A stretch of 64,000 nucleotides of DNA from Lingula anatina. Lineage: Eukaryota > Animalia > Brachiopoda. Both the position numbers and the translations under genes were made by a program. The notes under the pieces were generated by a model. It saw only the letters and a list, made by a program, of their open reading frames with translations. It had not been told where the DNA came from and did not search any database. The stretch is taken from contig CM120640.1 of assembly GCA_051362555.1 (NCBI GenBank), forward strand, positions 20,150,001 to 20,214,000. Direction: 5' to 3'. Below are positions 5,001 to 38,000 of the stretch, in pieces; the first letter of the stretch is position 1; the number at the start of each line of letters is the position of its first letter.

Positions 5001-8000
5001 ACTGTCCAAAGAGTGAAATATGACTAAATGACTCAACATACATAAATATCAATTTGATAAAAAGAATATGCTTTTCTTCCTTGCACCATACTATAATATT
5101 ATTCTATCATTCTTGCTAAGTCAACATCAGTCAATTTTTCATCCACAACCTAAATAGCTTATTGTGTAGGTATTTCTCATGAGATAATTATCTATTATCA
5201 GTCTTCATCGGTTCAGATTACAATAACCATCAAAAAGACATTATTTTTCCATTGAAAATCAACACAACTTACCCGTACAATCTGTGTGTGCTGCCTCTCT
5301 ACTGATAAATGCAATGGGGTCTGGAGATTCACATTCTGAATGTCAAGGTTGGCCTTGCCCTGAAAGCATATTCATAAAGAATGTGTTTGCAATAGCATAG
5401 AAGTACAGCTGAGGGGGTATGGGTAAAACAAAAGTTAGCTCTATCTTGTCTTTCTGAATTCTGTTTTTTTTATATTTTTGCCCTCAAACTGTCAAAACCA
5501 GATGGATCACCTATATTAAAACCATTGTAGTCTATAAAATTGGCAAGCATTTTCTCAACTACAACATTTTCACAAACCTGTTGTAAAGGTAAGGCAGGGA
5601 TAGTTTACACGCACTCATGGCACACCATTACTAGGGTATTACATTAATAAGACATATGCTCCACTAACGCATTTATTACATTTGACATGTAACCATGGCG
5701 TGAGACTATATCCAAACTCATGCATGCCCTGAGACAGACTGTTACACAACAATTACACAATACATTATCTAAAGGTCTGTTCAAACCAGGGCTAGTTCAG
5801 ACCAAAATCTACCATAATGGCATCACCAGATAACTATAAGGTTTGTCTCTTATGTGCTTTGTGATGGGGAAAATTGGCAAGTTTCCAGCCTTAAGTCACA
5901 TTTCCAGTCCAGCTAGGCCGAACTACCTCAGCAGAACCCATTTTAACTAGCTGTCATATTACAATCATCTCACCAAACATAAGCAGCAAATCTTATCCAC
6001 GTTTTCTTGCCTACCATCATTGTAGTTAAATCAGAAGCACTTCTTTAATATGACTTTCCATGGTGGGCTTATCATTATGTGACCCCCTTACCCCAGTGAG
6101 ATGGGCCATACCAAGTAAGGTCAACCCAGCTTGACCAGAAACATGACTGGAAACAGACCTTACCAGGCTAAATATAAAACATACCCAGTTTTCTTTCTGA
6201 CAACTCAATGTTATTTTAACTTACTGAAATACTTTTCTTAAGATGATGGGTTCTTTAACTATAAAAGTGTGTGTTTTCACACAGTTACTTTCCTTTAGTT
6301 TCATAACCTAACCTATGCACATTCTTAAGTTATTATGGTAAAAAATTACCTGACACACTAAAAACTAATAGGGATATCAGAAGCTGTGGCCAATAAGCAT
6401 GTCATTTCATTCATCCAATAAAAGAACACCCAACTAACAGACGCCAGTTATGGTCAAAACAATACAAATAAATGAGTGAGTGAGTGAATGAATAAGTGAA
6501 TATATGAATGAATGAATGGTACAACAATATCATGTGAATTACCTGATGCACAAGGAGCTCAGCCACTTCCACATGGTTATTGAGAGCAGCCAGATGCAGT
6601 GCTGTGTAGCCATCATCCTTTTTCTCATCTACTATCCATGGTCTTGGTAGCTTGGCCAGCAGGATACGCATAGCACTGAAAATACAGAGAGGAGAAAAAA
6701 ATTAGAATTGGGATCAACTGGCTCTTAAGAAAATTTCAGGACCAAAGAGCAAATGTTAACTTTTGCATGAGAGTGCATATACAAAATATATCTTGAATTA
6801 CAAATACAAAATTGCTAACTGGTTGTGTAGCTTAAAATACTGCATCACATTTCAAAACATTTCAGCATGGAAATACAATATTTCGCTTTACTTTAATGTA
6901 GATATCAAATAACAACACAGCAGCAAATACAAAATCACCACTAAATGCATACAAAAGCACAAGCCTGCACCCTACCAGATTCATCCCAACAAAATCTCAC
7001 TCCACAAATTTTTTCCATAGCATGTCATACAAAATAATAATATATAACACGGTGGTTTTATAATACATTTTATTCCAACAATTGTTCTTATATCTTATAT
7101 ATTTGATTTTGTTTGGTTGCTCTGTGGTTTTGAAAAATTACATCAATGTATAAACAATACCACTAATAGCTGCTTGCAAAAATTCAATAAATGTGTATGG
7201 TAAGGAACTACAGTAAGCCATTTCTAAGAACACTTTTTATTCAAGAGGCACGTTATGTAGACCCTTGATCTCATAAGTGACTCTTTTTTTACAATCACTA
7301 CACATGACAAAATGAAACATCTATTTCATCATATTTCAAAAGTTGTGACCACACTTTTACCCCCAATATGTACAACAGTAGTACTTTTTTAAAGCAGTTT
7401 TAACCACTTCTCTATCCAGACATTTGTCTATGACTAACCTCCAACAGGCAATAAACCATTCATTTTCAAATATTTTTATTGTTCCACATCTGGCTATGGT
7501 TAAACACTCAGTCAATGGTTCCCAAATCTTCAAACATATAACACACTCATTATATGGATGTGTTAAAGGATATTGCTCAAACAATGCTTCTCTCATGCTA
7601 CAAGTCCTAAGCACATTGCGGCAAATATTAAAAACATCCCTTTTCATTACTTTTTCAACCCATGCTCTGTCACAGTTAATTTCCTGCAAACGTCTGAGGC
7701 TGGTATATATCAACTTAGGCAGGATAGTGTGTGCCTTTTTTTATACCATGGATGCCTGTCATTTGACAAACTTAACTTAATGCATTTCTTGCTATTATGG
7801 AGCATTTTTAAAAAGTAGTTTTACAAACAGGTGCACTGCAATCCTTACTAAAAATCCTCCACAAATTTAAAACACTTTATTCTACTTTTGAGATTTTTGA
7901 AAATAATCTACCATAAAAAAAATTGAAGCATTATTATTCCATGAGCCTTATTAAAGAGAACCAAACAAATTGTATACACAATGCAAAGTTAGCATGACAC

Positions 8001-35000: not shown

Positions 35001-38000
35001 ATTTTGGCATCAAATTTCAAATACTGGCTAATATGCAGAAAATAAAAAGAAACCAATCAATAATGGTCTTCTTATTATAAACCAGTAAATATTCTATCCT
35101 CCACAAAGTAACAGACAACACAGAGCTTCCCTGTTTGATATTGATTCTAGAGGGTCCCCAGTGAACAATATTAAGCCCATTACCAGGAAACTTGGAACTT
35201 TCCGGAGGATAACAAATGGACCGCAAATCACCACATCGCAGCCTTGTCGATACAAGCCTTTTAGAGAGTTTCGAGTAAAATAATATGCTGACAGGGCTGT
35301 TTTTTTTTTTTTAATCAAAAAATGAAGCTGAGTAACCCACCCTCAAATTGACAACAAACCAAACCGGAATAATTCTAACAATACACAGCAGTTTTATGAC
35401 AAGGCTGGGGTATACTGAAGTCAATGAATAATTTCTTGTAACAGCAACTGATTTCCATCCAATGTAGCCTTGGGGAACACATTTTGTATTAATTCTCCCA
35501 GCTTGGGCCCTCCCACACAGACCTGCATGCCCTGGGTCCATTGATCATCATGATTTAACTATGGGCCTCAAGCCAACGGAAAAACTATATAAAACACAAG
35601 CTCATCAACTGAAATCATAAGAATTATCTTCCAAGTCTCCACATGCACTTATTGCAGAATTTTAGATACATAAATTGGGAGATATGCATTAATCATTATT
35701 ACACTTAATCCAAGAAGTCACACCACAAATATCCACCCATACTTCAGCTTAGTCAGATATTGGGAAGATATTTCTAATGACAATTGTACTAAATATTATA
35801 TAGTAAAAACTTCATGTTTTTGTGAGACTTTCTTCATCCATACAAAATATACTATGACAGTCAACATGTGAACCTTATCCTTTTTTCAAAGATATTTAGT
35901 ATTAAAATTACAAATACATTTTGGTCTTATCTCCATTCAATCTGTTCACTCAGAAAAAGAGAACTACAAGAAAGAAGTCATGCAACATGGTGCGTCATAG
36001 CCTTCCTTAACATTACACAAGGGTGATTCAACCAAATATATCACTTAACTCTGGCCTTTTTAGAAATGGGTAATAAATTGAGGTACTGCCTAATCTAGTG
36101 CAGTTATATAATACATGTATCATACAGTATCTGATGTAAGATGCCTTAACACTGATTTGCCCTGCATCAACACTAGAATGAACTAAATAACATTTACATT
36201 TTTTTGTTTTTATTTGCTTACAACTTATTATTTGCAAAATTATTCAACTTATTTTAGACAATACACATAATGCACCTGAATTCACAAAAAAAATTTAAAA
36301 GATTGCCATACTGCAAGGCTTATAAAAACATCCTCTCTCTCCAAATTTGCAATTAGTCATTTTTGTAAACGAAAGCACCAACTTGCATCTTGAATATTCC
36401 AGCATACCGTTTAAGGGGTTTATTTGATTATATCAATCACACACAACTACACATATATACATAAAGGTGATAAGAGCAACAGTAGTAGTCTAAAAAAATC
36501 ATGGAACATACATAAAATCAGACTTACTTGATTTTCCTTTATTGCCTCTCTTCAGCTTTCATCTGAGATGGTCACAATGGATAATATTAGCAGGTAGCAT
36601 TTGAATATGCATGTCTCAAACAGCTGCTAAAAAAACTTTTGGATGTGCCGCGAACATTGAAGAGTATCGCACAATACAAAGATTACAGTCACTGCATAAT
36701 GACAATGCAATCTCCTCTACAGCATTTCCGAATGCCGAAAGTTTAATCATTCCAGACTTGAAGCAATCACATCTCAACAACCACATTTTCTCCCCATCTC
36801 TGGAGCCTTTCATATGCACATGTCCAGCTTTCACTTCTAACAACCTCTCTTACATGTAGTCAGTTTTTCACACCACAACATATAACTCTTCCACATATTT
36901 CTTGCAGCATCTATTACCCAATGACCCAAACAAAAATAAATTTCACATACAATAAATTTGACTTCAAACATACATGTAACAATACACAAGTCCTTATCAC
37001 TCATTCAGTAAGATCCCCCACATGCTTATTTATATTCCTTACCTGGGATTTCCTCTCAGAGCTGCGTGGTGTAAAGCATTGAAGCCATTGTTATTGGTCA
37101 GCGTGATGTCTGCACCATACTCCAGCAGCAGGCTGATCATGTCATCTCTCTTCTTGCTGATAGCATCATGAATAGCCGAGTCGCCTTCAGAATCCTGACA
37201 AAATTAAATCAGGTAAAAAATGTTAAAATATTAAAATATACTATCTAGATAATTTTCATAAACTTACTTTTACCTTGGTTGTTATCCACAGTATATTAAT
37301 GGGTCACCTCACCTGTAAGCTAGGGTGACAGCCCAGCTCCAGTAACATTTTCACCACACCGATGTGACCTTTATTGACCCCAATGTGGAGTGGAGTTTGT
37401 CTCCTCTTGTTCCTGGCATTGAGATCAGCACCCCCTCTATGGAGCATGTCAACCACTGACGGCTCATCACCAAATGCTGCATGATGCACAGCCCTGTCAC
37501 CATCTTTGTCCTACGAGGAAGTGACAACAAGAATACAGTCTTTTTCCCAAATAATTACATTCCTACTACTAACAAAACCCCCTTTTCTTCAGTTGCAGTA
37601 CCAACATCAATCAAAAGAAGTTTTCAATTCGGGAAATTCATTAGTATCATAACTAATCAACAGATGTTCAACTTTAAGTACCATCTTTAATCTTTCTCAT
37701 TCTTTTATTTGGTCAATTTTCAAAGTAATGCTTAGATTGAAATGCTTAACCTTGGCACACCCTCATTTTTATACCTCTATTTCCATATCCAAGTCATACT
37801 TCATCAGTGTCTTGATGACTTCAACATGGCCATTTTGGGATGCTGCTTGTAGTGCAGTGTGTCCAGCAAATACTCCATTGGGCTGCAATAATCAATAAAA
37901 CAATAGACATTTTGCAGGAACAGTCTAGTTGTGAAAATATACAGGCTAAATTGTTTTATTTATACAAATCTGTACCTCTTTTTATCATTAAAAATTACAC

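Follow-up and report, generated by a model that had tools for sequence, protein, structure and literature searches.

A description from 2008 has the microRNAs miR-1 and miR-133 lying antisense in intron 12 of MIB1 (mind bomb 1) in bee, beetle, frog, chicken, mouse and human, and an argument linking this nesting to Delta was already made at that time, citing Drosophila Delta as a target of miR-1 and the ubiquitylation of Delta by MIB1 (PMC2500172). In echinoderms the nesting has been shown by reverse transcription PCR across an intron of ~140 kb, which in sea urchin divided Mib1 into two annotated genes (PMC11076791), and the mouse cluster, located in Mib1 intron 12, is described as bicistronic, with Mib1 expression being unchanged upon deletion of miR-1 in muscle (PMC12214129). 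Furthermore, the synteny of Mib1 and miR-1-2 in fish has been covered (PMC4177693), Mir-1/Mir-133 count as an ancestral cluster under a clustering rule of 50 kb (PMC12257675), and in flatworms the pair is found between two Mind bomb models, where the existence of one transcription unit is doubted, as it is, citing others, for Drosophila (PMC4405270). Here we consider a window of 64,000 nucleotides (nt) from the brachiopod Lingula anatina (GenBank assembly GCA_051362555.1, contig CM120640.1, positions 20,150,001 to 20,214,000), which very probably holds the Lingula copy of this known bilaterian locus, with miR-1 and miR-133 placed antisense in MIB1 intron 13 and made independently of MIB1. The locus thereby adds a brachiopod to a nesting known across bilaterians. 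The arrangement itself is not new, as the initial annotation of the window had also pointed out, and it has been published for invertebrates as well (PMC2500172, PMC11076791); no brachiopod or Lingula case was found in the literature searched, from which subscription journals were mostly out of reach, and a prior description is possible.

The host gene and those of its parts that matter here are the following:

2059..43577, minus strand: gene for the E3 ligase MIB1 (mind bomb 1), with 22 coding exons and 994 amino acids (aa), from a spliced match to the protein record P0003
37043..37194, minus strand: MIB1 exon 13, which terminates with LRGNP plus two bases and carries the giant-intron donor
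6676..37042, minus strand: MIB1 intron 13, 30,367 nt, in phase 2, interrupting the Ser codon that follows LRGNP (aa 618)
6543..6675, minus strand: MIB1 exon 14 (S-AMRILL...), from the 22-exon model

The translation of the 22-exon minus strand model (43577 to 2059) equals the 994-aa P0003 exactly, exon 1 is 100% identical to the Lingula anatina MIB1 records P0002/P0003, all 21 introns have GT-AG ends, and Pfam recognises the MIB_HERC2, ZZ, SH3_15, ankyrin and RING domains. Exons 12-13 and their splice joint are furthermore present in the RNA of all four sequencing runs used. The initial annotation had singled out intron 13 as far larger than the others, and the coordinates that it gave are exact; the remaining 20 introns measure 118-1,648 nt. 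A protein-coding gene nested in intron 13 was considered as well and rejected, the best Pfam match among the three longer intronic open reading frames examined having an E value of 0.097. The second Lingula MIB1 record, P0002, comprises 618 aa on an 18 kb contig, is identical to residues 1-618, and ends in exact coincidence with the giant-intron donor; it is likely a redundant haplotype scaffold.

Within this intron two microRNA hairpins are found:

19766..19841, plus strand: pre-mir-1 hairpin, by Rfam RF00103 and fold, with the mature-like 3p arm at 19813-19834
31425..31500, plus strand: pre-mir-133 hairpin, by Rfam RF00446 and fold, with the mature-like 3p arm at 31473/4-31495

Both are on the strand opposite MIB1, with miR-1 first and the mature-like arms 11.64 kb apart, just as had been claimed. 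The Rfam scores are 63.7 bits for mir-1 (gathering cut-off 45.6) and 65.9 bits for mir-133 (gathering cut-off 55.5), the mature sequence being on the 3p arm in either case, and the folds reach -41.9 kcal/mol for mir-1 (z -8.0, reverse strand -32.6) and -42.1 kcal/mol for mir-133 (z -5.6, reverse strand -34.5), neither being equalled by any of 200 shuffles. The mature sequences had moreover been called exact, of which the positions and the arms stand, while identity rests on the Rfam consensus. A CNNC placed 16-18 nt behind the 3p arm is a processing motif of canonical microRNA genes, and the CAAC seen 18 nt behind the miR-1 arm and 16 nt behind the miR-133 arm fits this spacing. Apart from these two, Rfam reports in the 64-kb window only the mir-1 hairpin read on its reverse strand (58.6 bits). 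There, at 19773-19794 on the minus strand, a miR-1-like 22-mer with an altered seed is found, which would be transcribed within the MIB1 intron and is a candidate product only; an antisense miR-1-2 product reportedly exists in mouse.

The position of the host intron can be followed in other animals. A metagenome scan with MIB1 exon 13 yielded 38 loci from 21 of the 64 parts of the collection, of which 25 are MIB1-like (70-84%) and include several near-duplicates, and 13 were dropped as generic ankyrins (L026-L038, 36-58% identity); the Rfam scan covered 17 of the 25. A GT donor is found two bases after the same Pro codon in 24 of the 25 MIB1-like loci, the exception, L009, being intronless and transcript-like. 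The boundary is likewise visible among 305 stored proteins, 158 of which carry the RGNP-region motif: after the motif 130 models continue normally, 27 break or diverge right after RGNP, and one differs otherwise. The diverging models continue with Arg in 21 cases (AG|G read-through) and with Ser and then unrelated sequence in five, and one stops at Pro. Eight of them are vertebrate (songbird, kangaroo rat and five fish species), and since these diverge right after RGNP, the protein models put the exon boundary of vertebrates at this codon, too. The common donor and the vertebrate models both speak for the positional orthology of the host intron that the initial annotation had proposed, and in practice the 27 of 158 affected models warn annotators that gene models of MIB1 are repeatedly cut short or divided by this intron.

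The proposal that the large size of the intron goes with the nested microRNAs holds as well, since all eight loci in which both flanking exons are present have a short intron (57, 411, 429, 565, 612, 743, 793 and 848 nt) and no miR-1 or miR-133 match. The locus L018 has MIB1 exons 1-13 and, 5.4 kb inside the intron, an antisense mir-133 whose 5p arm is almost the same as that of Lingula; it is lophotrochozoan-like, its tree placement being weak. Two coral-like loci, L019 and L025, group with Montipora (93-95% identity, tree support 0.98) and have an intron of 411 and 565 nt with no microRNA. Because the intron is short and microRNA-free in these, it is likely older than the bilaterian microRNAs, and the coral-like loci thus order the events, with the intron first and the microRNA unit afterwards. 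At L023:865-922 the intron is only 57 nt and Gly replaces Ser; this is a divergent MIB1, 78% identical to all named animals, and it is possibly from a non-bilaterian lineage. A blastn comparison of the Lingula intron with 11 loci returned only the mir-133 hairpin and short chance-level matches, the miR-133 pattern occurred in none of the viral contigs, and no Nematostella, Ciona or cnidarian comparison was found in the literature searched, whose reach was limited as above.

The anatomy of an antisense transcription unit can be predicted from sequence only, as follows:

8441..8628, no strand assigned: predicted muscle-type enhancer, with a pair each of CAGCTG E-boxes and CArG boxes within 190 nt, from a motif scan
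10843..11107, plus strand: predicted promoter and short first exon of the antisense host transcript
20111..20116, plus strand: AATAAA, candidate poly(A) signal, ~280 nt behind miR-1
27704..30662, plus strand: strong splice donors at 27709, 27948, 28836 and 30662, predicted exons of the miR-133 host RNA

The predicted promoter combines TATAAAA at 10951, a CArG box at 11058 and a strong donor after 11107. Motif counts in intron 13 were compared with those in 200 dinucleotide shuffles of it. CAGCTG, the only one of 16 E-boxes enriched to that degree, occurs 25 times against 6.3 expected (0/200 shuffles), with one copy inside miR-133 itself, CArG boxes occur 8 times against 3.2 expected (2/200 shuffles), and the donor word AGGTAAG is found 7 times on the plus strand against 1.6 expected (0/200 shuffles) and once on the minus strand. 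A separate CAGCTG-rich and GC-richer block is located at 27.8-28.6 kb. Since vertebrate miR-1/133 are controlled by SRF, MEF2 and basic helix-loop-helix (bHLH) factors, the CAGCTG and CArG clusters may be expected to drive expression in muscle. It should also be mentioned that the predicted host exons contain, at 28114-28123 on the plus strand, a 10-nt perfect match to the 5' end of miR-133, a full seed site, which taken alone is within chance expectation.

RNA reads from four of the nine listed runs of Lingula anatina, with coded tissues, were mapped on 17600-37599 in bins of 667 nt, using ~6% of the reads of three runs and 25% of one. MIB1 exon reads mark X1, X4 and X5 as stranded runs and X7 as an unstranded one, these reads being all first-mate plus in the former three (14.5/0 in X1, 6.27/0 in X4 and 6.65/0 in X5). 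The bin holding miR-1 (19601-20267) shows 0/3.14 in X4 and 0/2.82 in X5, which is RNA antisense to MIB1 in an amount of ~2,100 and ~1,900 letters, respectively, and X1 has almost no antisense RNA there, so that two of the three stranded runs are positive. Antisense transcription thus takes place at miR-1, at a level that varies by sample. No antisense depth was seen in X4 or X5 in bins 18934-19600 and 20268-26270, and plus strand reads are hence absent from the bin next to the AATAAA onwards; the reads at miR-1 would suit either polyadenylation just behind it or a 3' fragment left there by Drosha. Sparse antisense reads flank miR-133, at 28939-30272 and 31607-32273 (1-3 read pairs or 300-780 letters per bin), and at this low depth none were seen in the bin that holds the mir-133 hairpin itself.

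A nested unit made independently of MIB1, which is the reading we prefer, would have come about in three steps: a short intron at the LRGNP codon would have existed before the bilaterians, the microRNA unit would have emerged there, or come to rest there, on the opposite strand, and the promoter, the enhancers (CAGCTG, CArG) and the spliced non-coding exons of this unit would then have inflated the intron and tied the two genes to each other. The hairpins are likely transcribed from a promoter or promoters of their own, likely in muscle, with a candidate transcript start near 10980 (TATA 10951, donor 11107), and are likely excised by Drosha and Dicer independently of MIB1. The transcripts likely end behind miR-1 (AATAAA 20111), or run on or restart to reach miR-133, and such alternative ends or starts would mean that the levels of miR-1 and miR-133 can likely differ. 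The link to MIB1 is most likely positional rather than a shared Delta circuit, since a nested unit cannot move without breaking its host gene.

A number of findings weigh against this account. The bilaterian-like loci L005, L008, L010, L022 and L021 have a short, microRNA-free intron, and the link between the microRNAs and MIB1 is therefore not universal, be it by loss or by paralogy; in the tree L022 and its relatives fall weakly among annelid-like sequences and L021 weakly among arthropod-like ones, this being a tree in which Watersipora is misplaced and support for L018, L021 and L022 is weak, and the accompanying identity comparison covers five of eight rows. The ancestrally short intron, in turn, is founded on the two coral-like loci and L023. 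As for the predicted anatomy, the intron exceeds the remainder of the window only 2.4-fold in CAGCTG density (p 0.009), there is no enrichment of MEF2 sites (13 against 9.8, 45/200 shuffles), and a matrix trained on the 21 MIB1 introns finds 11 donors scoring >=10 on the plus strand and 4 on the minus strand, with acceptors showing no asymmetry (9 and 9). Finally, the reads are few, the 667-nt bins are too coarse to place them relative to the hairpin, and no plus strand splice joint reached the listing threshold in the four runs on 17600-37599.

Upstream of the mir-133 hairpin a further element deserves attention:

30087..30105, plus strand: isolated complement of miR-133-3p, 18/19, with one mismatch opposite seed position 7

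It sits 1,388 nt upstream of the miR-133 3p arm, inside the predicted exon that ends at donor 30662, and its bin has ~two antisense read pairs in X4. None of 3000 shuffled microRNAs matches the intron as well as miR-133 does at this site, where the duplex reaches -34.0 kcal/mol, compared to -32.9 with the true 5p arm and -23.8 at the next site. A second mir-133 hairpin at 30087 was considered and discarded, as neither strand forms a hairpin (z -0.3 to 0.7). In L018 a stretch of 15-16 nt perfectly complements the 3' portion of miR-133, on the same strand as the microRNA and 296 nt upstream of the 3p arm (0/3000 shuffles reached 15 nt), and the complements of Lingula and L018 both pair with nt 9-20 of the 3p arm.

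The arguments are evenly balanced as to whether this complement is a functionless relic, that is, either the remaining 5' arm of a duplicate hairpin that has decayed or the 3' arm copied locally in inverted orientation, which would have originated by hairpin-prone replication errors. The Lingula site does resemble the mir-133 5' arm, agreeing with the 5p arm of Lingula at 14 of its first 15 nt, and function is further argued against by the facts that there are two cases only, that their distances from the 3p arm differ, that they share only a 12-nt core with flanks that do not align, and that the site in L018 lacks seed pairing and coincides in part with a possible splice acceptor. However, both sites match a perfect complement of the 3p arm better than they match the 5p arm of the animal itself, both end where the mature sequence ends and have no 3p remnant beside them, neutral decay would hardly spare only that stretch in two distant lineages, and miR-1 has no comparable site, its best duplex outside the hairpin being -18.3 kcal/mol. 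It may tentatively be proposed, although we regard it as rather unlikely, that the miR-133 host RNA of lophotrochozoans bears a conserved 'anti-miR-133' element, acting in cis or in trans and uncoupling miR-133 from miR-1 in a cluster that ranks with the oldest of bilaterians and would itself have settled in a short MIB1 intron of pre-bilaterian age. In cis, an alternative fold would compete with the 5p arm and gate Drosha cleavage, and in trans the element would pair with mature miR-133, leading to self-slicing or to feedback on its own precursor; a decayed duplicate on the one hand and a cis competing fold or Argonaute-based feedback on the other appear about equally likely. As to cis-pairing, the Lingula complement forms 0 pairs in the fold of the unspliced RNA and pairs dominantly in one of four hypothetical spliced forms, which extend 2 nt beyond the donor, and the L018 complement outpaired the 5p arm in 7 of 12 folding windows, but since these results swing with the window chosen, folding was discounted as evidence. 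Target-directed microRNA decay is triggered by seed pairing together with extensive 3' pairing around a central bulge, and this pattern is found at neither site, the Lingula one having a seed mismatch and no central bulge and the L018 one no seed pairing. If conserved for function, the complement would amount to a self-regulatory element, not described before, of a muscle microRNA common to the bilaterians, and no self-site in pri-miR-133 was found in the literature searched, in which the coverage of subscription journals is limited.

We are slightly more inclined to doubt than to accept that the two hairpins are carried by one bicistronic, spliced pri-miR-1/133 transcript spanning most of the intron, from ~11 kb to beyond 32 kb, in line with the whole nested transcription unit of the initial annotation, in which case the read gap between them would be an intron or fast-decaying Drosha debris. 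The strand and order of the hairpins and the strong plus strand donors from 11107 to 30662 are what such a transcript would have, the mouse clusters are described in this way (PMC12214129), and Mir-1/Mir-133 are taken as an ancestral cluster by the 50-kb rule (PMC12257675). On the other hand, the AATAAA 280 nt behind miR-1 is followed by a region, 20268-26270, with no plus strand depth in X4 or X5, a second promoter or enhancer might reside in the GC-richer, CAGCTG-rich block at 27.8-28.6 kb, and one unit is disputed for flatworms and, via others, for Drosophila (PMC4405270). At the low depth available, antisense reads lie near both hairpins, with none in 20268-26270 and no joints among them. 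That the nesting instead persists owing to a joint action of miR-1 and MIB1 on Delta, with antisense transcription in muscle lowering MIB1 and miR-1 lowering Delta mRNA so as to jointly shut off Notch signal sending, is improbable, for although the nesting is retained from brachiopod to mammal, miR-1 targets Delta in Drosophila and MIB1 ubiquitylates it (PMC2500172), and interference by convergent overlapping transcription is conceivable, no 7-mer site for miR-1 or miR-133 occurs in the 2,058 nt behind the MIB1 stop, loss of miR-1 left Mib1 unaltered in mouse (PMC12214129), several bilaterian-like loci lost or never had the nesting, and the MIB1 exon depth, ~12x in X4 and X5 (antisense present), 12x in X7 and 27x in X1 (antisense-free), comes from too few and unnormalised samples to say anything. 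The Delta coupling is thus neither new nor backed by anything examined here.

Other features of the window include the following:

32839..33349, no strand assigned: insertion resembling a miniature inverted-repeat transposable element, multi-copy, with 166-nt inverted ends 89% alike and TAA on both flanks
43917-44348, 51614-51847, 52607-52783 and 52945-53145, plus strand: exon pieces of a cyclin-box gene, from Pfam and Atlas

Copies related to the insertion, which we take to be of the Tourist/PIF-Harbinger type, are abundant in the RNA reads. The cyclin-box gene (43923-53600, plus strand) is found head-to-head with MIB1, ~350 nt from the MIB1 start codon, and is Cyclin_N-like (Pfam E 0.074, Atlas 0.90); its motifs look like those of Cables. 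Its place beside MIB1 may reflect an ancient MIB1-Cables microsynteny, Cables1 having been described as a conserved neighbour of Mib1/miR-1-2 in fish (PMC4177693). At 59746-60955 three tandem repeats of ~400 nt, 85-89% alike and with open frames on both strands, lie within a minus strand gene, the pieces of which at 59170-59526 and 63412-63999 have no Pfam match, and tandem duplications within introns are found at 45409-45756 (~175 nt, 89%) and 3092-3210 (59 nt, 97%).

Compared with known systems, the upstream complement of Lingula and L018 is a separate element 0.3-1.4 kb away from the hairpin, unlike the miR-133 site of the RNA linc-MD1, which is said to be part of the hairpin itself. As the host of miR-133b and a sponge for miR-133 (PMC3919156), linc-MD1 is otherwise similar in being a miR-133 host RNA that can bind miR-133, as that of Lingula might do. 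The complement is furthermore reminiscent of let-7, for which a self-site in C. elegans pri-let-7 is cited in PMC4109843, in being a site complementary to a microRNA in its own primary transcript, although it differs from that case in its seed mismatch in Lingula, in the lack of seed pairing in L018, and in being known from sequence alone. The nesting itself resembles the flatworm 'cluster-like region miR-1/miR-133', which has mind bomb annotations on both sides and a spacing of 11.7-34 kb, but whose authors assigned the two mind bomb models to different genes and were sceptical of co-transcription. With vertebrate miR-1-2/miR-133a-1 the Lingula locus shares the order of miR-1 and then miR-133, the antisense orientation, the intron in the ankyrin region and the RGNP codon, and it is distinguished by the host intron being number 13 of 21 rather than intron 12 and by the spacing of 11.6 kb. 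Finally, it joins bee, flour beetle, silkworm and echinoderms as an invertebrate in which miR-1/miR-133 are nested in Mib1, and the split annotation of sea urchin Mib1 is the same failure as that seen in many of the protein models compared here.

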